Source: Scyliorhinus canicula
Lineage: Eukaryota
Assembly (NCBI RefSeq): GCF_902713615.1
Contig: NC_052158.1
Coordinates: 18,596,546 to 18,660,545 of the forward strand
Reading direction: 5' to 3'
Length of the DNA: 64,000 nt
The stretch's first letter is position 1. The number at the start of each line of letters is the position of its first letter. Of the stretch, positions 1 through 12,773 are shown piece after piece. The notes under the pieces are model-generated. The model made no database searches and was not told the DNA's origin. It worked only from the letters and a program-made list of their open reading frames with translations. The translations under genes were made by a program, and so were the position numbers.

Positions 1-783
1 CCCGAGGACCGAGCAAGTCAAGATTCACGAGCTCGTGGATTTGCCAGAGTGGCCGGGATACCGATGGTGCAGGGGGCAATCGATTGTGTTCACGTCCCCA
101 TGCGCCCGCCAGCAGGGGACAGGGACGTGTTCACAAACAGGAGGGGGACATACTCCATGAATATCCAGGTGGTATGCGACCCCCACATGAGGATCATGAA
201 CGTCTCTGCAAGGTTCCCAGGGAGTGTGCATGACTCCTACATACTGGTGCAGTCGTTCATCCCTGCGATGTTTGAGGGACGTCCCCCCCGGCTGAGGGGC
301 TGGTTGCTAGGCGACAGGGGTTATCCGCTGAGGTCTTGGCTGATGACGCCTATACGGAGGCCTCAGATCAATGCGGAAACACGATACAACGAGGCCCATG
401 CAGCAACCAGGGGTGTGGTGGAGCGCTGCCTTGGCCTCCTGAAGATGAGATTCAGGTGCATGGACCGCTCCGGAGGGGCCCTGCAGTACCAGGCCGAAAG
501 GGTCGCTCGCATTGTAGTGGTCTGCTGTGCGCTGCACAACATCGCGATGCAGAGGGAAAATGACCTGCTGCAGGAGGCGGAGGGAGAAACCAGTGGCAGT
601 GGTGCCAGCACACTGGAGGAGGAGGAGGAGGAGGAGGAGGAGGAGGAGGCTGGCGGAGTGGCGGGCGCAGAACGCAGACACGACCCAGGTGCTGGTGATG
701 TCCAGGAGGCGGCACAACGGACCTGGCGAGGACGGCGGGCACGCGACGCCTTGGTGGCAGCACGGTTCACGCATCGCATGTGA
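1..783 (+). CDS. Harbinger/PIF transposase (HARBI1-like DDE nuclease), C-terminal ~260 aa, 5'-truncated by the window edge
   Basis: Frame is open from base 1 (PEDRASQDSRARGFARVAGIPMVQGAIDCVHV...). It contains AIDC, NRRGTYSMNIQVVCD, PGSVHDS, LLGDRGY, GVVERC and CCALHN motifs and an acidic tail. Confidence 0.93.
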   Translation, partial: PEDRASQDSRARGFARVAGIPMVQGAIDCVHVPMRPPAGDRDVFTNRRGTYSMNIQVVCDPHMRIMNVSARFPGSVHDSYILVQSFIPAMFEGRPPRLRGWLLGDRGYPLRSWLMTPIRRPQINAETRYNEAHAATRGVVERCLGLLKMRFRCMDRSGGALQYQAERVARIVVVCCALHNIAMQRENDLLQEAEGETSGSGASTLEEEEEEEEEEEAGGVAGAERRHDPGAGDVQEAAQRTWRGRRARDALVAARFTHRM

Positions 784-1351
784 CGTCCCCGCTGAACACC
801 AAACCACCACCTGCATCGTTAGTCGTGCAGAGGGTCAACGCATAACTGCCACCACCACAGCCCCCCCCCCCCCCCCACCCCCCCCCCACCCCCTCTCAGT
901 GTACACTGCTCCACTTAGACATCACCCTTACCACTGGGTCCAGACGATATGGTACAACATTGATGGCTATGTCAGCGGGTGTGACCAGTGCCATGTGGAA
1001 TGATGACAGCCCGCTCTGCGATGAGCTGTGAGCTCAGAATCGTTAGAGAGAGTCTGACCCATGGCAATAGCTGAACCATCCACCTTGGTGGCCGCTGAGA
1101 TCGTCACTGACACTCCATCACGTGCCCGCGTGGGCTAGCTGTGGGAGGGGGGAGGGGCAGGGACTGCACACCCGGCACCGAAGTTTCACCACCCGTCACC
1201 CCCAGCGACACTCGGTCACCATCACGATTCCTGTGGCTGTGGAACAATCACACGGTATTACAAGTAAGGTGGAACAGTGCGTTTAATGTGAACAATAATT
1301 TACAGGTGCCCTAGCCCCTACAACTAAACTGTGCCCTTCACCCGTGCCAAC

Positions 1352-3140
1352 TTACTCAGTGTCTATCTTAGTTGCCTTACGGGCCCTACCACTATGTCTA
1401 AGTGATTCCCCAGATGATACAGCAGGAGTGGAGGAGGATTGCTGCGAATCGCCCCCCTCGACTCGTTTCTCCTTGGCCAAGCGTTTCCTGGGGCGACCCG
1501 GCCTTGATGGGCCAGGCTGCTCTGCGGGCGTCTCGGGTGACATTGTGCCACCCTGCTCTGCCTGCTGCCCACCCGATGCACCAGGGATGGGACGGGGGGA
1601 GGCCGAGAATTCCAGGACGTCCCGTGATGGACTTAATGGGACGGGTCCCGAAACCTCCTCCTCCCTCGGGGAGCCCGGTGGCCCCCGGGCCTCACTTTGG
1701 GACAGAGGTGCGAGCGGGGAGGTGCCCTATCGCACCACCGACACCTGGCGCTGCCAGTCCTGGAGGCCTGCAACGGTATCCACCAGGATCCGAAGGTTTG
1801 CAGAGACGGAGTCCAGGGAGTTAGACATTCCCGCCAGGGACTGTGCGACCTCAACCTGTGAGTGCACAACGCCATCCAGCACATGTGTCAGGCGGTTGAT
1901 GCTCTACGCGACTGACTGCTGGGACTGTGCCATCGACTGCTGGGACTGTGCCATCGACTGCTGGGACTGTGCCATCGACTTCTGTGACTGTGCCATGGCG
2001 TGCTGCGACTGGCCAATGACCTGCTGAGACTCGGCCAAGGCCCGCAGCGCGCCGGCAATGTCGTGTTGGCTCTGGCACATTGCTGCCTGTGAGAGGGCAA
2101 CCCTGTCCAGGGCCGAGGATGACGCGTGCACATTAACCCCAACGCCTTGCATCACCTGACCCATTGCCTCCACCGCAGATGCCATCCGTGCGGTGTCGGA
2201 CTGGGTCTCTGCCATGAGCGGCACCACTCCCTGCTCGTGGACGCGGTTCGACTCCTCTAACAGCGTCTGCAGAGTCTGGAAGGAAGCCCTCATCCCGTCG
2301 TTGTTTCCCTGGGTTTCTTGAGGCATCGGCTGTGCGGGTGGGCTGAGAAACTCCAGGAACTCCGAAAACGTCTGGGAGCCAGCTGCATCCTGGGCCTGGT
2401 CTGGCCTCCGCGAGTCCGGGCCCTCGGTTGCTCCTACCTCCACCTGCTGTACCTGCTCAACTGTGATGTGCAAACCAGACTGTGACCCAGGAGACTCATC
2501 ACTAAATAGGCCCGCCGGGGTGAGTGTCTCTGGGATGATGGATGTCGTGGGAGAAAGCAGTGCCGCAAGCCCGATGTTTTCGCTATTTAGGCCCTCCTCC
2601 AAGGTGTGGGGCCGCTCAGAGTCCGGAGGGTTATCCTTGGCCATTTCCGGGGGTTGTGGTATCGCCACCCTCTGGGCGTCCTGCTCCGCAGATTGGATTG
2701 GGGAGGATGGGGCTGCCCGCTGATCGGGCACCCTCTGTTGTGCGGCCCTGGGTGAGGTGGCGGCAGATGCCTGTGCCCGTCTGCAGCCAGACGGCCCTAG
2801 TCGTTTGGCATCACGTCCTAGGGAAGAGAATGAGACGGGTTATTTAGATTTGCTCGGCAGGCCGCTGGACGGTCCCAGTGGGAAGCGTGTGAAGGGACAG
2901 AGGATGGGGGAGGTATCCCAGTGGTCAGTGTGTGAAGGGACAGAGGATGGAGGAGGTCCCAGTGGGCAGAGTGTGTGAAGGGACAGAGGATGGGGGAGGG
3001 GTGGGTGTTTGTCAAGGAGGGCAGGGTGTGTGAAGGGACAGAGGATGGGGGAGGGGTGGGTGTTTGTCAAGGAGGGTTGTCTCACTTGCTGCAGATCTGC
3101 CAACCTCGCATAGCGCGATATCCCGGGTGGCAGACCTCCC
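1352..3140 (-). pseudogene. Harbinger partner (Myb/SANT-like) gene, 3' exons, convergent with the transposase
   Basis: ORFs 1904-2731 and 1352-1543 are in one frame, broken only by TAG at 1904-1906 and 1727-1729. Acceptor ttctcttccctag|ga lies at 2817 and donor a|gtgaga at ~3086. It has SQQSMAQ heptad repeats, and its exon layout matches the second copy at 48040-49175. Confidence 0.75.
2860..3075. repeat. Minisatellite (gtgtgtgaagggacagaggatggggga..) in the Harbinger partner-gene intron
   Basis: About 5 degenerate tandem copies are visible directly. Confidence 0.8.
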
Positions 3141-3149
3141 AAAAAGGTC

Positions 3150-3849
3150 TGCACAGATCGCAGCCGCAGTTCAACTAGGGAAACGGCGTAAACAAAGCAC
3201 AGCATGCTTTAACAAGACCGTACACCCCACAGAATTCCAGGTTGGGCAACAGGTAATGCTATCTGTATACAACCCCAGCAGTTTTTTGGCACCAAAATAT
3301 TCCGGGCCATATTCAATTTCGGATAAAATTAGCCCCTCAGTTTACAGGATAAAATATCCTAACGGAAAGACCGCGTGGTTCCATATTAACCAGCTAAAGG
3401 CATATGGAACACAGTCCAACCATGCACACCATGTCCTGCTAGACACAGCAGAACACCTCACCCCGCCCACTAGAGACACGTTTCCACCATCCCCCTCACA
3501 GACCAGTTCTTCATTGGACTCGCCCACGACTCCGCCCACTGACCACGACAGACCACGCCCCGAAACGCCCACAAGCTGCCGCAGCAGAGACAGCGATACA
3601 GACACTGACTCTGAGGACAGCCACAGCACACCACACTACAGCCCACACTGCAGCGACTATGACCCCGACTCCAGTGACCCCATGGAAGTCACCTATATTA
3701 AAAACCCAGACCCACCACCCGACCCCGACTACCCCGACAATACCCATTCACTTTTAGCCCAACACTCTGGCACAGGGACAATTCGTACAGACTTGTCCGC
3801 AACGACGAAAGTGACCCCCGGTCACATAATTCAAAAATTTCATGCCTGA
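3150..3849 (+). CDS. Integrase C-terminal (GPY/F) domain plus Pro/Ser/Asp-rich extension; probably continues to 3954 after a frameshift
   Basis: ORF 3064-3849 in the track. An alternative frame WHRDNSYRLV...NPFVTLFTEAEKK* runs to 3954. Confidence 0.75.
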
Positions 3850-4835
3850 TCCACACAAGGGTGTGGGATCCGGGAGAGCAGGACGACACGGTGTCTGAAT
3901 CCCGATACGGCAACCCCTTTGTGACCCTGTTCACAGAGGCAGAGAAAAAGTGAGGTGTCCAGATGATGTAAAATAGGAACCGCTTGAGGGAAGCGATGTC
4001 CTTTCTGATGGAACCTGCACGTATGTTTTGTTTGTCAGTTTATGTTTGTTTCCTTGTTAATATGTTAAGGGTTTGATTGCAGATCTTTTCAGCTGAAAAG
4101 ATTGTGACCACCTCGCACGCACTTTAGTTTGTCTGCAGAAACCTCTGAGAACTTTCTATTGTGACCAGCTCACCTTATCGGCTACACTGTCTGAAGCCCA
4201 GCTCAATTTTCAAAAGGAGCATCTTGGCTCCTCCCTTGTTTTTAGGTGCCCCTCTATTCAGCGAATAGAGGCTGCAAATCCACGGTAAACACATTCTTGC
4301 CCGTTTAATCCAGGTTACTCAGGCAGTGGACAAACGGCACTGAGGACCCGCCCTGTCTGAGAACCCACTTTGGTCAGCCAAGCTCGGGTATGGCACAGCA
4401 CGCCTTACCCGGGGATCCCATTCAAATCTTACCCGTAGCGGCCCATACGCAACCCATTCGACCTTTTCTTTCAAATTTGTTTTCATTTTTCGTTAGGCAG
4501 CCCTTAGGCCGCCATCCCACATGCTATTTACATCCAGGAACATTCGGATGGTAAATTAGCAAAGCCTGCGAGACGGCTCGCAGGAGGAAAGTTGTTAGGT
4601 GTATTCTGTTCATTAAATTCGCTTTTGAAAAAAAAAAAATGAGGGGAGTCACAGGGTGTGACTTGGCCAGTCATTTTAATGGGTCAATTGGAATTAGAGG
4701 ACAGATACACTAACAAGTACGGATATTAAACTGTGTATTGACAGATACTGTGCTTGATCCCATAGCTTTCAAAGGACGAAAGAGGGTTCACAGCAAGGAT
4801 CAGCCATACAGGAGGAAGAGAACGAAGAGAAGACC

Positions 4836-5180
4836 ATGATGGAAGCCTACCTATTACTGTTAAATGTTATATTTGTATGTGTGGAAGCAAGACACGTTTC
4901 CCCCACAACCCCCGCCGTCAATGTTTCCCTCACACCAACTTCCCCGTGCTCAGCTCTGATCAGTGAAGTTCAGACCTGGTGCACAAAATTTATGACATGG
5001 TACTCCATGTCATATGTGATTGAATCACTGCTAGTCATCGCAATCCTCTGCATAATCGTACAGACCCTCAGGTTGAGGAAATGGAAAAGGAGAGCCTCCC
5101 GTTCTTGCCCCTCAACCATCTATGGAGTTCAATCCCCTATTTTCGGTTTCCACCAATCCCCCCAGCCCCTCAATGAATAA
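4836..5180 (+). CDS. Small type-I membrane glycoprotein (114 aa) in the env position of the Gypsy element
   Basis: Start context accATGA; hydrophobic leader MMEAYLLLLNVIFVCVEA; NVS sequon; 2 ectodomain Cys; TM VIESLLVIAILCIIVQTL; basic stop-transfer RLRKWKRR; AATAAA at 5176 and 5192. Confidence 0.75.
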   Translation: MMEAYLLLLNVIFVCVEARHVSPTTPAVNVSLTPTSPCSALISEVQTWCTKFMTWYSMSYVIESLLVIAILCIIVQTLRLRKWKRRASRSCPSTIYGVQSPIFGFHQSPQPLNE

Positions 5181-5541
5181 AGCACTATGTGAATAAAAAA
5201 ATACCCATGTATTATATTGTCCTGGCTCGACTGCCGAGTCAGGAAATGTTATGTGATGTGGTATGAATGGATGAGGTTTAGACTGTAATAAAATGTTTAA
5301 GGTAAGATAAGGATAGTTGTGATAGGTAGAGGTTCCCGGTTTTGGTAATGCATGTCCCCTTTGACATAGCGCCAAGTAGAGATGTCAGGTAAAAAATTTT
5401 CTTCCCATAGTCAAGGACAGAGTAGACGCCCAGGAACTTGCCGAGGACAGGGAACACAAAGAAGGCACCCAGAAGCACTCGAAGCAACGTGCATAGGTGA
5501 TCCTTCACAATTTTTTTATTGTGAGGATCACAAGGAGGGAA

Positions 5542-6553
5542 TGTAGCCACCTAAGATGGACACTGGGCTAACAAAATGGAGAACTGCTAAGACTGTAGGG
5601 AGAAAACAGTTTTAGCCAGGACAAGCAGTCTGCAAAGGCTAATTAGCATTCTGCACGTAGCAAAACTGGTTTATGGCCAGGTGGAAGATCTCAACCAAAG
5701 GTGTAAATAGCAAAACGCTTTGCATAGTAATGAGGCAATCCAGATCTGGGCACACACAATAGCAACATTTGGGTTTGAATGGATACTTTGAGTGGACGCC
5801 CAGACGAAACGGCACCAGAAGTATCCATCACAAAAGACCCTAGAGACCGCCCCACCCATCGAGAAGAGACCCTCAGATTGGGGGATTTGTAAGACATCGA
5901 TTGGGAAATAACCCAATCGATACATGGCAGGTAAAGGCCCGCCCCGAAAAGGCACGGACATTGGGGGCCCTATAAAGATAGACCCCGCACATGGTTCTGT
6001 CTGTTTTTGTGCTCCGGCTTGGACTGCTGCTTTGACTCCGGCCCAGATCTGCTGTTGTATCCTGACTCCGACTCCAGCCGTTGATCCTGTCTTCCATCAC
6101 CAGCCGTTGAGCACCAGCCATTGTTCAGTAAGTCCCAAAACGACGCTCGCTACGTGAACCCAGCATTGCCTATACATTGATCGACTAGTAACGAACAGAA
6201 GGTGCAGCCCAGAAAGGAACAAAGGCCTTGTCCCCTGACCTTGCTGGTTCCTACTTAGATAAGTATTTAGTCGTTTAATAGTAGGAATAGGTATTAGTCT
6301 TTAGCGCGTGCAAGCGTATTTATTATATTTGTATAATAAATATTAATCGTTGGAACTTACTAATCGGTGTATAGTTTTATTACTTTGAACCTGACCTTGA
6401 AATACTTGTGAGGTGTCTATATACGGCACCTGGCGACTCTGAGCTGAAAATACACACACACAGCTGTAGCAGTGTTAAGCACACGGCCTTTAAACGGAGG
6501 CGTGTTAATACACTCCAATAAACGCGTAATACACTCAAGTAAAACGTGCAACA
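5542..6553 (+). mobile_element. 3' LTR (~1012 bp) of the Gypsy element
   Basis: TG...CA termini with imperfect inverted ends directly after the PPT; TATAAA at 5971; AATAAA at 6335. The right end abuts a SINE that is uninterrupted in the paralogous arm (19533). Confidence 0.85.
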
Positions 6554-6769
6554 GTGTCTGCCTGGGTTTCATACCACAACTCAAAGATGTGCAGGTTAGG
6601 TGGATTGGCTATGCTAATTTGCCCCTTAATTGGAAAAAAAAATTGGGTACTCTAAATTTTTTTTAAAAAGTCAATAGTTATGGCTTACAGGGCACAAATT
6701 CTCGAATAGTCTTATGGTCGCTCTCTTGTACTCACCTCACTGCCATGTGTCCACAGCAGGTGGAGACAG

Positions 6770-7269: not shown

Positions 7270-8151
7270 TGTTTTTCTAATTTCACCTATATGTTTTAGA
7301 ATTCCCTTTATACCAAAGAACCTTACGGGCCAATATTCTAAAAACGGCGAACAGGGAACTACCTCCCTGACTCCAGTACAGGCCTCTGAGAGTGCTAATC
7401 GGGTCAAACTCTCCTTTCAAGTTATCCCCCGGTATAACTCCTACCTTCACTGAAGAATTTTACTTACTTACCCCTTAATGGCATTGATGTCCAGGGTCCT
7501 GCGTTCTTAAGGAAGTGAAGTAAGCTAATAACCACTTTTTCAGGTTAAATTATTTTATTATTAACATACTCTTTTTTATCTCATTAAATTAAAAACATTA
7601 TTTACTTTTTGATGTTGTCTGGTTGGTTGGTGAGGCCTTCAGACTCTCTCTCTCTCTCTTTCACTTTCAAGCCTCCTGGTCATCTCTCCTGGTGCAGTTT
7701 TCTCTTTTCCTCCTCTTCTGTCTTCTGTGGCTGCTGTGGCTGCTGCTGTCCTTCTTGCTTCTTCGGGTGCCGCTGGTGTTCTGCTGCTGGTGTCTTTGTT
7801 CTTGCTTCTTGCCTCGTGGGGAGAAAAAGGGGAGGAGTCTGAAGTCCACGCTGGTTTCTTTGTTTCAGCTGTTCTGATCGGGACCTCTGATAAGGATCGG
7901 ACTTCGGGTCTTAAAGGGGCAGTCCATCACAATTTTCCAACAACACAAAGAGATTTTTTAAAACTTTTTTCTTCTGCCTTTCTCCTGCTGCAGGTTGTAA
8001 TAACCATTTTGATAGACTGAAATTGCTGCCCACAGTTTCTGTGCCCTTCAGCTGCCACCAACCTCTTGTGGGATCTTTCCCTGCACTCTCCCCGATCAGA
8101 TGTTGGCAGACCTCTATGTTTCAAATGACACATTCTGTATTTTCCAGAACA
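7270..8151 (-). mobile_element. 3' LTR (882 bp)
   Basis: Minus strand TGTTCTGG...GAAAAACA, preceded by purine tract caagacgggg. The only difference I found from the 5' LTR is one T in a homopolymer (~7572). Confidence 0.95.
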
Positions 8152-9493
8152 CCCCGTCTTGACATTTGAAACATTACTATAATTTGGTTTATTGTCCCCC
8201 CATCCAATTGTACTAACCTACATCCCTGATCATTGTCATTTGTATGCATATCACCGACCAGTGTCAATACGAGTCTTGTTTTCCGTTCCAGTCCAACTTG
8301 TTTTCCATTTCTGATTGGAATGTGGTAATTGTGATATCTTTTACCCCCCACTGATCCCCTAGTCTTATTAATTTAAAATGTTCAATTGATCCTGCTTGTA
8401 TTCCTAACTTCCCCATTAATGTCTAACATTGTCGTGAATCATGTAAGTCTGCCAACCCCTGGTTTACATGAGAGAACATCTTTCTGACAACGTGTATATT
8501 TTTCCTTTCAGCATTTACAAAACCGCATTGAACCGTCTCTTTTTTTTTCTTCCCAAACAAATTCTCCCTATTGTTCTATACATAGTAAAATTTTTATCTT
8601 ATCTTAACACCTTATTCATTACCTAACCAATAGACTGTGTGTTACACTTTACATATTTTCAACTGTTAACAATTTAATATCAATATCGAAACATCGCTTC
8701 TTGGCTTTTGGAACAATCATTATTACATACTAACTAACCCTCTATTAAAACATTCACAGTTTAGAAATGCGGATCAAGTTATTTAACGACACACATACCC
8801 CCCTTCTCATATATATACAACAGTCCCTATCAATTTACATGAAAATAAAAAAATTTTCTTATCAACGATTATAGCTCTTCAATGCAATATTGTTTTGTTG
8901 CATTGGTAACAATTTTCCCGCCGTAGTATCAAGCTACTGAAATTCTTAACCTATTATCATTGATCATATTGGGGTTCCTCGTCAGTCGCTGCTATCTGCT
9001 GCCGAGACCTTAATGATTCCACTGCGTAGTACATACCCCATGGAGACCACAGATCATCCATCAACTAATGTCCAGTTAGAGATGTCTGACCGGGGGTTTC
9101 ACTGTCCAGTCATAATTTGATATTCTAATTTGCATTTAATTCCCTCAAATTTGTAGCCAATTATATCATTAGTTTCCCCCCAATCCTGTCGAACAGATTC
9201 TTCTCTGGAGTGTAGTTCTCTTCCTTCTCGCGAACTGGTTTGTTATTGGAGTGTAGTTCTCTTCCTTCTTGCGACCTGGTTTGTTATTAATTTTTTCCAC
9301 CTGAAAAAGCAAATGAACAGATCAAGGGTGGAGAGGGCCCTATTCTTTAATTCGGATTATCCCAGAAGTGCCCTCTCCAGGACTTCCGGATTCCTTTTGC
9401 CATCATTTCTTTTTGAACTGGTTTATATTCCATATCCTTGATGTAGTCAAGCCTCCTTCTGTCATTGCACCCCTGAGTGAGATTCGAAGAATC

Positions 9494-11070
9494 TCAAACT
9501 CCTCTGATGCTCACTGGGTCGTGTGTTTCAAGCGTGACACAATTTCTTTTGCTCCAGACACCATGCTTCTCTAATTCAATTGTATGTGTACCCAGAATCT
9601 GAACAATCTTGTCTTTACATTTTACAGTCTCGCGAATGATTTTCCCCGCAGTCTTAGTTGGTAACTTCACCCAAACTTCGTCTCCTACTTGATAATTCCC
9701 AGATTCACTTGGGTCTCCTTGTCCCTGGGGGACAGAGGTTCCAAGGTTGCTATTAAGATCAAATACTATTCTTTCAATGTCTTTATCCCAGCCTTTATTA
9801 TTCTGATTCTTTATGATCCAATCCTTTACTTTTCTTACAGACCTCTCAGCCATTCCATTACTCTCAGGTGCATATTTCACGGCCCAATTGATTGTTATTC
9901 CTCTGTCAGCACAAAAGTTAATAACAGTATTGTTTCTAAAGTGTGGCGCGTTGTCCATTCGGATCGATTCTGTATCCTTTCCTGTGGTCTTAGTGCTGCT
10001 ATTATCTGGCCTTGTGTTTCTGTGCTGTTCCTTACCCTACTCATGGCTCTTCCGAAACTGTCATACCCTTTGCTCATTTGCCAAATTTTAGCTTTGGGGG
10101 TAACGTTTGGTAATTCCAGTAATTTCGTAGAATCAATTTGTTGACTTCCGCCTAATATTTCTCCTATTTTAAGTCCCCTAGCTGTAACCTCTCTTTCCCA
10201 TCCTTCCTGATCTCTATGGTGTACCATTTCTGCTTCTGGATTATAAATATAATACGGTACATCCTTATTTACTGGTTGATAAGTGGAAGGTTGTTGGTGT
10301 TTCCAGTGATCGCTATAATCCCCTATTTCTAATGGTTTAGAATTTTTTCTATTCCCTATTCCTCTCTTTGGTTTGACTATTTCCTCATTCTCGGATGAGG
10401 ATGATAATTCTTCCTGTCCCATCACAGGAGGCGCCATAATCCCAACTATGCCTTGTTCCTCTTCACTTTCTTGTGGTTCAACGAAATGATCGATAAACGC
10501 TTCTTTCTTATGTGTGGCAGATTGCTGAGGCCAATTTTCTTCCTGAAACAGACTTGGATCTGGGTATGGAAAATTGTATCCCGTTGGGAAATTTTCACAG
10601 GAGTCCGAATTCTCTCGGCTATCTGATTCTAGGCCTGATTCCTCGTCACTTTCCATTTCTAATGGTTCATTTTTCTGCAGTTGTTTTATATATTTGCCTA
10701 CCACTTCAGAGTTACTTTTGTGTTTACTAGGGATCTGTATTATTTCTGTCCTGTTTACTCCGTCAATGATTTTAATCAGTTTGGAACACACTTTGCCCAC
10801 TTGAGCAGCTGCATGCTTCTGTCTGTGTCCAAATACGATTAGTGATTCAGCTCGCTTTTCAAATGCAAACTGACAAAGTGCTTTAAGGACCCTGACTGAA
10901 TCTGTATATTGCAGGGCTTTTGGCACTCTAACAAAGAGGGAGATATCTCCGTCTGGATACATATCGCTTGTCCAGGATTTCTTTTGCTCTTTTAATTTCT
11001 TCCATTCCCTTTTCATTTCTACATTTCTCTTGACCGTATCCCAGGGCATGAGAATTACCCTAATTGCCAT
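9494..11070 (-). CDS. Pol-derived protein (~525 aa after repairing one 1-nt deletion at ~9972): degenerate RNase H/tether-like N-terminus, acidic linker, integrase-like C-terminus
   Basis: ORFs 9895-11115 (ATG at 11070, gaaaATGG) and 9494-9958 join as RIPESIRMDNAPHF if one base is restored. MDN...MAER is an exact D(35)E spacing, and YQVGDEVWVK is a GPY/F-like motif. N-terminal homology is weak. Confidence 0.7.
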
Positions 11071-11496
11071 TTTCGGATTTTTAGTTCTGTTCCTGGTTGT
11101 CCCTTTCAGGTGCACTCTGAAATTAAGGATAAGTACCCTTTCTGGGCCCTATCCAAGGCTGACCAAGGCACTATCTTCCTGCTCTAGTTAAGGGTCGATT
11201 GATTATTGGTTTCTGAATATAAGCGTCCCTATTTTCCAGAAAATGTCCGCACAATCCGCCTTACTCTGAGGATGATTTATTCTTTAGCCCCTTTTACCAG
11301 TGATGGATGCAAGATTTTAGTGCTATCACCAAAATGTCTTGCAGACTTTTTCTCAGGGTCAGTATCTTCTAGTCTACTGATTTTCACACCCAACCTGAGC
11401 TTCAGTCCCCTCGATCCACAGAATATCCTTACAAAAGCCAATCACACCTGACTTTCCAAACTAAACTCGGCAGGTAAAGTTTGACTCACACATAGA

Positions 11497-11873
11497 CTAG
11501 AAACTTCTAATATTCTAGCCTTTTTGCCGGTTAGAAACTTCTAATATTCCACCCGTTTCTTGGGAACTAGAAACTTCTAATATTCTAGCCCCTACTCTGC
11601 TTAACTAGAAACTTCTAATATTCTAGCCTCGCTTTACCTAGAAACTTCTAATATTCTAGGCTTTTCTTGGGAACTAGAAACTTCTAATATTCTAGCCCCT
11701 ACTCTGCTTAACTAGAAACTTCTAATATTCTAGCCTCGCTTTACCTAGAAACTTCTAATATTCTAGGCCTTTCTTGGGAACTAGAAACTTCTAATATTCT
11801 AGCCCCTACTCTGCTTAACTAGAAACTTCTAATATTCTAGCCTCGCTTTACCTAGAAACTTCTAATATTCTAG
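11497..11873. repeat. Array of 11 copies of the 22-bp core CTAGAAACTTCTAATATTCTAG with three cycling spacers (107-bp higher-order unit)
   Basis: Higher-order units start at 11567, 11674 and 11781; the spacers are cccctactctgcttaa, cctcgctttac and gc(c/t)tttcttgggaa. Confidence 0.95.
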
Positions 11874-11874
11874 G

Positions 11875-11892
11875 CCTCCACGCTGGGCGCCA
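11875..11892 (-). promoter_or_regulatory. Primer-binding site, tRNA-Lys(CUU)-like
   Basis: TGGCGCCCAGCGTGGAGG versus the Lys1,2 PBS TGGCGCCCAACGTGGGGC (15/18), with no spacer after the LTR CA. Confidence 0.82.
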
Positions 11893-12773
11893 TGTTTTTC
11901 TAATTTCACCTATATGTTTTAGAATTCCCTTTATACCAAAGAACCTTACGGGCCAATATTCTAAAAACGGCGAACAGGGAACTACCTCCCTGACTCCAGT
12001 ACAGGCCTCTGAGAGTGCTAATCGGGTCAAACTCTCCTTTCAAGTTATCCCCCGGTATAACTCCTACCTTCACTGAAGAATTTTACTTACTTACCCCTTA
12101 ATGGCATTGATGTCCAGGGTCCTGCGTTCTTAAGGAAGTGAAGTAAGCTAATAACCACTTTTTCAGGTTAAATTATTTTATTATTAACATACTCTTTTTA
12201 TCTCATTAAATTAAAAACATTATTTACTTTTTGATGTTGTCTGGTTGGTTGGTGAGGCCTTCAGACTCTCTCTCTCTCTCTTTCACTTTCAAGCCTCCTG
12301 GTCATCTCTCCTGGTGCAGTTTTCTCTTTTCCTCCTCTTCTGTCTTCTGTGGCTGCTGTGGCTGCTGCTGTCCTTCTTGCTTCTTCGGGTGCCGCTGGTG
12401 TTCTGCTGCTGGTGTCTTTGTTCTTGCTTCTTGCCTCGTGGGGAGAAAAAGGGGAGGAGTCTGAAGTCCACGCTGGTTTCTTTGTTTCAGCTGTTCTGAT
12501 CGGGACCTCTGATAAGGATCGGACTTCGGGTCTTAAAGGGGCAGTCCATCACAATTTTCCAACAACACAAAGAGATTTTTTAAAACTTTTTTCTTCTGCC
12601 TTTCTCCTGCTGCAGGTTGTAATAACCATTTTGATAGACTGAAATTGCTGCCCACAGTTTCTGTGCCCTTCAGCTGCCACCAACCTCTTGTGGGATCTTT
12701 CCCTGCACTCTCCCCGATCAGATGTTGGCAGACCTCTATGTTTCAAATGACACATTCTGTATTTTCCAGAACA
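11893..12773 (-). mobile_element. 5' LTR (881 bp)
   Basis: Direct repeat of 7270-8151; the ORF-track translations of both copies are identical; directly followed on the minus strand by the PBS. Confidence 0.95.

Follow-up and report, generated by a model that had tools for sequence, protein, structure and literature searches.

A short reading frame under purifying selection, predicted to encode a small membrane protein, lies in the env position of a catshark LTR element

Organisation of the locus

We analysed a 64-kb stretch of catshark DNA, referred to here as the window. It contains the 3' part of an LTR element, the carrier element, with a short open reading frame (ORF) after pol. The main features of the carrier element and its upstream neighbour are as follows.

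1-783, plus strand: 3' part of a Harbinger DDE transposase (Pfam DDE_Tnp_4)
1904-2839, minus strand: low-complexity partner ORF of Harbinger, facing the transposase
3184-3849, plus strand: 3' end of pol, 5'-truncated, with the integrase C-terminal SH3-like (GPY/F-type) domain and tail
4836-5180, plus strand: 114-codon ORF under purifying selection across copies, between the integrase C-terminal domain and the polypurine tract (PPT) and LTR
5532-5541, plus strand: PPT
5542-6428, plus strand: LTR of 887 bp, from TG at 5542 to CA at 6428, with a TATA-like box at 5971 and AATAAA at 6335
6431-6553, plus strand: PBS-like TGG start (6431) and about 120 nt of leader-like sequence, ended by a SINE-like repeat

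The 5' side of the carrier element is cut at about 3150-3185, where it abuts the Harbinger element. Hence, gag and reverse transcriptase are absent from the window. The Harbinger element takes up positions 1-3150 and is joined directly to the truncated integrase. What is present of the carrier element includes a TG...CA LTR, a PPT, a PBS-like start and an integrase that is last in pol and has a GPY/F-type C-terminal domain. These features fit Ty3/Gypsy elements and retroviruses alike. The original prediction described the element as Gypsy-type; its LTR ends, PPT and integrase tail are compatible with that class, but the assignment comes from the integrase tail alone and retroviruses fit equally. 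Pfam SH3_Tf2-1 matched the tail (3184-3849) with 32.2 bits against a cut-off of 30 (E 1.1e-7), and Integrase_p58_C stayed below the cut-off there. In the ESM Atlas, the tail scored 0.93 with an MLV-type C-terminal domain and 0.92 with a Tf2-type domain. No relative of the tail was found among longer proteins or in the PDB. Beyond the SH3-like domain, pol is low-complexity and rich in Pro, Ser, Thr and Asp, with an apparent frame change near 3770-3850 in the window copy.

About 900 nt of non-coding sequence lie between pol and the ORF. Within the 64-kb window there is no second copy of the LTR or of the element, and Rfam returned nothing for 3100-6700 at E values up to 1. Part of the carrier element was found in 20 of the 24 sequencing runs listed (19 of organism A and one of organism B). 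The LTR is followed by the PBS-like TGG and leader-like sequence (6429-6553), as if two tandem copies had one LTR in common. The PBS-like stretch may resemble the complement of a tRNA-Arg 3' end.

The ORF is under purifying selection

The 114-codon ORF is the longest ATG-initiated frame in 3951-5540, and no other Env-sized frame occurs between pol and the LTR. As predicted, it is intact between integrase and PPT (4836-5180). Its length is modest evidence, because 21 of 1000 shuffled versions of 3951-5540 contained an ATG ORF of at least 114 aa. The pattern of variants among copies indicates that the ORF is more than chance. For this comparison, contigs of four runs (two guessed to be DNA of organism A, one of organism B and one guessed to be RNA of organism A) were aligned to 4800-5230 at 80% likeness, with a 12% share threshold for variants. 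Among the 40 variants listed, of 63, we counted the 35 in codons 1-114 and left out the five in or after the stop codon. Of these 35, 24 are synonymous and 25 fall at third positions. When the same kinds of change were placed at random, and each variant was judged singly against the window codon, 9.4 ± 2.5 synonymous changes were expected; 24 were reached in none of 4000 simulations. The five other frames have no synonymous excess (lowest p 0.058, for an antisense frame with third positions in common). The crude pN/pS among the variants listed is 0.14. In all these counts, contigs collapse many copies and linked changes within one codon are judged separately. The four runs have variants in common and are not independent, and private lesions under 12% are invisible.

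No nonsense changes or common frameshifts occur in the ORF among the variants listed. All eight indel rows listed fall outside it, clustered at 4815-4833 and 5195-5202. The chance of an indel-free ORF is 0.04 to 0.0003 if there are two to five independent indel sites. A separate contig set, with none of 12 indels in the ORF, was rejected as evidence (chance probability 0.27). We conclude that the ORF is almost certainly a real, selected gene. Purifying selection on the frame, named originally as a check, is borne out, and disruption in most sister copies was not observed among the variants listed. The variant test shows selection during the spread of the family, not the present-day share of intact copies.

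Relatives occur in catshark gene models

A phmmer search of 1.84 billion representative proteins returned four matches with 52-70% identity. A profile search among longer proteins (7993 candidates scored) returned 11, including those four, with 36-69% identity to the window protein. All 11 are RefSeq gene models, from Scyliorhinus canicula or S. torazame. The databases searched are restricted to annotated proteins, and the lack of matches in other sharks therefore sets no limit on range. The 11 relatives represent ten loci. Six run from leader through tail, and four are partial, with the leader absent, the tail replaced or an early end. From its Met, the product of full-length copies has about 113-120 aa. 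A tree of nine rows has three subgroups, two of them with starred support.

Host-gene sequence is present at seven of the ten loci (SUGCT, KIAA1958, galectin-like, B3GAT1-like, CFAP36, HEPACAM2-like and PTGER3). In each of the three models with a host-only isoform, the host sequence stops before the element Met (by 22, 17 and 22 codons), and the host-only isoform continues differently past the junction, without the element segment. By eye, this junction peptide recurs in two further models, again 22 codons upstream of the Met. Because the segment is appended to mutually unrelated genes, and is missing from all three host-only isoforms, we rejected a host-gene origin of the ORF. The fusion proteins are predicted gene models. 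Their last-exon cassette may reflect genuine exon trapping or may be an artefact of annotation. In either case its presence in catshark gene models is worth knowing. Among the S. torazame gene models, predicted isoforms of seven mutually unrelated host genes end in the element ORF. In the HEPACAM2-like model, the element segment would supply the transmembrane (TM) helix and tail of an Ig-domain protein.

The ORF product is predicted to be a small membrane protein

Judged from its sequence, the ORF product is very probably a surface type I membrane protein. Its parts are listed below.

4836-4889, plus strand: predicted signal peptide, residues 1-18, with small residues at -3/-1
4890-4973, plus strand: Pro/Ser/Thr-rich stalk, residues 19-46, with an N-glycosylation sequon at N29; both its sequence and its length vary
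4974-5015, plus strand: membrane-proximal segment, residues 47-60 (W48, C49, F52, W55, Y56, S57, Y60)
5016-5069, plus strand: predicted TM helix, residues 61-78
5070-5102, plus strand: juxtamembrane basic patch, residues 79-89 (RLRKWKRR at 79-86)
5103-5177, plus strand: short cytoplasmic tail with conserved Tyr96, Phe103 and Pro109

The leader and TM helix were assigned from hydropathy, the cleavage-site pattern and an AlphaFold2 model. Hydropathy peaks twice, around residues 4-17 and around residues 58-78. The AlphaFold2 model, from a five-row alignment, has helices at 2-19 and 40-89 (pLDDT 85-92 over 51-80, mean 65.5). A hydrophobic leader follows the Met in nine of 11 sequences at the script threshold, and a -3/-1 cleavage candidate was found in ten of ten. 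Residue conservation was assessed in nine aligned copies, the two sequences that failed the leader test being left out. W48, C49, F52, W55, Y56, S57, Y60, L66, A69, K82 and W83 are present in all nine. Averaged over sequence pairs, identity is lowest in the leader (0.36) and stalk (0.42), higher in the tail (0.49) and TM helix (0.58), and reaches 0.76 in the basic patch and 0.80 in residues 47-60. Hence, residues 47-60 are the most conserved part of the protein. Residues 51-60 are helical in the model (pLDDT 85).

In the stalk, a sequon occurs at the equivalent place in all nine aligned copies (NVS at 29 in the window), and the distance from Met to WC ranges from 47 to 56 aa across the family. 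The window ectodomain has Cys at 38 and 49. Cys49 is present in nine of nine copies, but Cys38 has a nearby Cys in only one of the eight others, and we rejected a two-Cys loop as a family trait. Within the TM helix, Glu63 is found in eight of nine copies and replaced in one; a Cys near position 72, in the inner half, occurs in all nine. The basic patch has 5-7 Lys or Arg within 12 residues in every copy. Tyr96, Phe103 and Pro109 are present in all eight rows that reach the tail, one of which is probably misaligned there. On a helical wheel, C49, Y56, Y60 and E63 lie within 60 degrees, which suggests a self-association surface. The original prediction of a leader, TM helix, RLRKWKRR patch and short tail therefore agrees with hydropathy, the AlphaFold2 model and the features kept in relatives. 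Its Pro/Ser/Thr-rich ectodomain with a sequon also stands, but as a family trait its pair of cysteines reduces to Cys49.

Searches for known families and folds

We found no family, solved structure or viral fold that explains the protein in any of the searches. Among proteins of 62-200 aa, phmmer gave nine candidates, none at E values up to 1. Pfam placed no Env or host family above the cut-off on any of the 11 members, and so did not identify the ORF as a fragment of a known env or host gene. Below the cut-off, the best Env-like matches were Hemagglutinin (E 0.041) and Baculo_F (E 0.16), in one member each. TMEM156 matched weakly in four of 11 members, and FAM174-like was also weak. A PDB profile search gave two matches (E 0.84 and 1.2), both signal-peptide-like. 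Foldseek against viral models (query mean pLDDT 65.5) gave none among 65 matches at E 0.001, the best being E 2.1. For the ORF product, all ESM Atlas scores were under 0.9 and the recognition value was 2242, below the 2300 mark. Of 81 pattern matches in viral contigs, none was confirmed. In the literature covered, most of it open to non-subscribers, neither this ORF nor any small TM gene of a shark LTR element is described. Such a small membrane-protein gene in the env position of a catshark LTR element family is apparently undescribed.

Candidate signals for expression

Four features flank the coding region.

4737-4765, plus strand: candidate 3' splice site from a consensus scan only, AG ending at 4765, with a branch-like A 24 nt upstream
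4795-4835, plus strand: purine-rich leader, 78% A+G with four GAA, ending in an ACC-ATG context
5176-5197, plus strand: two AATAAA hexamers, at 5176-5181 (overlapping the stop codon) and 5192-5197
5201-5264, plus strand: RNA hairpin predicted immediately downstream of the second hexamer

The candidate acceptor at 4765 is 70 nt before the ATG of the ORF, with no ATG between, and a second candidate AG ends at 4744. The purine-rich leader at 4795-4835 resembles an exonic splicing enhancer, as far as composition can indicate. In the gene models the ORF is appended as a last exon with junctions 17-22 codons before the Met, which would place an acceptor 50-70 nt upstream. Together these observations are a hint of a splice acceptor just upstream of the ORF. 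Among the 15 splice joints listed of 28 in contigs on the element, none enters the 4765 acceptor. The donor scan found only 5931 at seven of nine matches, and this site is upstream of the TATA-like box. By eye, a GTAAGT at 6128, within the probable R region, has six of nine donor matches.

AATAAA occurs at 5176, 5192, 5287, 6335 and 6517. The original prediction held that the ORF has its own polyA signals. Two hexamers are indeed present, but the first is lost in one subfamily that differs at 5177 and 5180, where the stop codon is moved to 5190-5192. This subfamily accounts for a depth of 989.7 of 1894.8 in X12 and about 450 of 665 in X14. The hexamer at 5192-5197 is untouched among the variants listed, and indels follow it. 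One contig, from a set of four runs guessed to be RNA, spans 5157-5343, across the hexamers, and says little on read-through. If cleavage at this site were efficient, genomic RNA would end before it reached the PPT. Hence, a site in use should have low strength or be linked to splicing. Gene models with the ORF as last exon may terminate at the internal hexamers or in the LTR. The hairpin has a predicted energy of -27.1 kcal/mol and a z-score of -4.95 in a window chosen after seeing it; in a scan of 44 windows it had the lowest z (-3.56), and three windows were under -3. From its predicted fold, it could mask a cleavage and polyA site, or act in export or packaging.

A second acceptor-like, purine-rich stretch lies at 5403-5541, just before the PPT, and resembles 4758-4833 (24 of 1000 shuffles). 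When translated, it beats the ORF's own upstream sequence as a match to the leader region of two of nine relatives, which belong to a single subgroup (none of 300 shuffles in either case). It is possibly a relic second cassette, or the ORF of that subgroup may start at the PPT and run into the LTR.

A possible envelope substitute

In vertebrates, LTR elements that lack env are assumed to be confined to the cell that makes them. Given the observed position, open frame, selection and conserved motifs of the ORF, we tentatively favour an Env substitute that aids the passage of particles between touching cells, by analogy with insect sORF2. Briefly, a donor in the 5' LTR or leader would splice to about 4765, making the ORF ATG the first one met. 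Cleavage after Ala18 would remove the leader, and glycans would be added to the stalk; the basic patch would drive movement from Golgi to plasma membrane. Cys49, Tyr56, Tyr60 and Glu63, on one helix face, would form the self-association surface, with the stalk as a variable spacer. The aromatic membrane-proximal helix and the basic, Tyr-bearing tail might then gather capsids at contact sites. There, apposed membranes could be disturbed enough for transfer, for example from somatic to germ cells.

The env slot, the lack of another Env-sized ORF, the splicing hint, the selection, a family-wide conservation that is strongest beside the membrane and the sORF2 precedent support an envelope substitute. 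In MDG1 elements, sORF2 is described as a short TM protein with a basic patch, located at sites of soma-to-oocyte capsid transfer (Voichek et al., PMC11952523). The same source places sORF2 downstream of pol in seven of 22 lepidopteran consensus sequences. As in the sORF2 elements of insect Metaviridae, the shark ORF is a short sense-strand TM frame in an LTR element whose present part lacks env. The small ectodomain and juxtamembrane basic patch are alike too, as is the location downstream of pol of some sORF2 genes. Conversely, sORF2 has 63-107 aa, is expressed from unspliced RNA and mostly carries a myristoylation motif, whereas the shark ORF is likely spliced and occurs in a vertebrate. 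The shark protein also differs in its predicted cleaved leader and sequon. The retrotransposon screen behind sORF2 is reported to have covered arthropods with the myristoylation motif as a filter (PMC11952523). None of ten shark sequences starts with Met-Gly, as N-myristoylation requires, and none would pass that filter. Protein searches with the shark ORF had no sORF2 among their matches.

Several points count against an envelope substitute. Many type I proteins combine a small ectodomain with a TM helix and a basic patch. No joint into the acceptor was among the 15 of 28 listed, the donor scan gave a single site at seven of nine matches, and four of ten loci are partial or broken. A glycosylated stalk could hinder close membrane contact. 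According to PMC11952523, fusion activity of sORF2 itself was not reproduced in cell assays. The membrane-proximal segment is only weakly amphipathic (moment 0.29-0.54 in ten sequences), and no hydrophobic patch stands out in the stalk. sORF2 proteins have amphipathic motifs on both sides of the TM helix; in the shark family the moment after the TM helix is 0.45-0.81 (eight sequences) and driven by basic residues.

The original prediction also noted a layout like that of the reovirus FAST proteins. The small ectodomain (about 40 aa in FAST), single TM helix and juxtamembrane basic cluster of p10, p14, p15 and other FAST proteins are matched. Further FAST features are also found, namely a basic patch 3-8 residues long, a Pro-rich stretch and a Cys near the cytosolic end of the TM helix. 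A juxtamembrane tribasic motif is reported to drive Golgi export of FAST p14 (PMC3952855). However, FAST proteins are described as having a reverse signal anchor, no signal peptide and no glycosylation (PMC3952855), whereas all nine aligned shark copies combine a predicted leader with a sequon. Fusion is known for FAST proteins. With regard to the N-myristoylation or palmitoylated di-cysteine of FAST proteins, the shark sequences have no Met-Gly start in ten of ten and a single Cys in the inner half of the TM helix in nine of nine. We rejected membership of the FAST family on the predicted leader and the sequon. This lowers the case that the ORF product is a FAST protein, not that it works like one. 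The stronger claim, that this vertebrate LTR family has replaced env with a signal-peptide-bearing glycoprotein acting as a new minimal cell-cell fusogen for env-independent soma-to-germline spread in sharks, convergent with sORF2 and FAST, is less likely than not.

Alternative explanations

The Env proteins of retroviruses and errantiviruses, the F-like Env of lokiretroviruses and OVEX1 ORF3 are like the shark ORF in their place after pol, probable single splice, anchor and N-glycan site. Unlike them, the shark protein has 114 aa, too few to accommodate SU, a fusion peptide or a coiled coil, and it has no ectodomain cleavage site or profile match. OVEX1 ORF3 is given as 873 aa (PMC2717909). 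We rejected Env identity, since the SU/TM core is absent and no Pfam Env family above the cut-off and no PDB or viral-fold match was found. A shrunken Env is a separate matter. Such a protein would have lost the receptor-binding and fusion core but kept signal peptide, anchor and tail, and would anchor capsids at a budding or vesicle-release site without fusion. The env position, likely spliced expression, leader, TM helix and short tail agree with this, as do conservation strongest at and just inside the membrane and the roughly 900 nt of non-coding sequence before the ORF. Nevertheless, we consider it rather unlikely: no member of the 11 has an Env family above the Pfam cut-off, there is no PDB relative and no viral fold match under E 2, and no long Env-bearing relative appeared among the 11 matches of 203-2000 aa (7993 candidates scored).

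The conserved Glu63 (eight of nine) and Cys49 (nine of nine), on the same helix face as Tyr56 and Tyr60, also bring to mind a host-modulating accessory protein. Through the TM Glu and a Cys-linked dimer, it would engage a membrane protein of the host, and would then remove, block or mimic that protein. Its targets might be a restriction factor, an immune receptor or an adaptor, as for small viral accessory proteins. A leader and sequon suit a stable surface protein. The way in which Tyr, an acidic residue and a post-TM Arg are spaced may resemble the zeta and FcR-gamma adaptors, but this likeness is absent from the PDB profile search (E up to 10) and from Pfam. By eye, the tail has no ITAM, ITIM or ITSM spacing, and a purely intracellular retrotransposon has less need of such a protein. 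Host modulation is an unlikely reading. The original proposal, a non-Env accessory protein for transmission or immune modulation, survives in part: the product is non-Env, selected and element-borne, and by analogy a transmission role is plausible, but the tail lacks the immune motif spacings.

An oligomeric ion channel that uses the TM Glu to aid release or uncoating is improbable. Small single-pass proteins with a conserved charged TM residue fit a viroporin, and influenza M2 appears in the ESM Atlas list at 0.83, which is a lead only. Conversely, all Atlas scores are under 0.9, the recognition value of 2242 falls short of 2300 and Glu63 is replaced in one of nine copies. Viroporins do not usually have a cleaved leader and a glycan. 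Finally, a captured host-gene fragment or chance ORF carried as passive cargo, as ORFs this long in 21 of 1000 shuffles, host-gene sequence at seven of ten loci and the weak TMEM156 and FAM174-like matches might suggest, is already largely refuted by the synonymous excess among the variants listed and by the appending of the segment to unrelated genes whose host-only isoforms lack it (three of three), and is scarcely credible.

Selection for a mini membrane protein in the env position throughout the family would mean that this shark family acts at the cell surface. If capsid transfer is true, the sORF2 route would have a vertebrate counterpart, missed by a myristoylation-filtered search, and the range of minimal fusogens would extend to a glycosylated protein of type I. 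A shrunken Env or host modulator would still be a selected intermediate between retrovirus and retrotransposon.

Relation to other fish retroelements

Accessory ORFs of foamy-like endogenous retroviruses in fish are also selected 3' ORFs of fish retroelements (PMC5210030, PMC5512871). These sources give their lengths as 164-465 aa, and PMC5210030 reports that no TM motifs were detected in its accessory genes. For ERV-Spuma.0-Sca of Scyliorhinus canicula, an LTR of 866-869 bp and about 1.5 kb from pol to the 3' LTR without a detected Env domain are described (PMC10699275). It is like the carrier element in host genus, approximate LTR size and Env-free pol-to-LTR stretch. In the LTR sequence given there, the start differs by eye over the first 400 letters, and we rejected identity of the two elements. 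Six short motifs had no match in supplement 1 of PMC10699275, whose sequence lines are apparently shortened.

A second LTR element occupies 7270-12700 of the window on the minus strand. Its two LTR copies are 100% identical over the 600 nt listed. It has a 417-aa gag-like frame and an integrase piece, no RT-sized frame, and a 107-nt tandem repeat in its leader. By eye, the start of its LTR reads like that of ERV-Spuma.0-Sca as given in PMC10699275. This element is probably a young, internally deleted member of ERV-Spuma.0-Sca.
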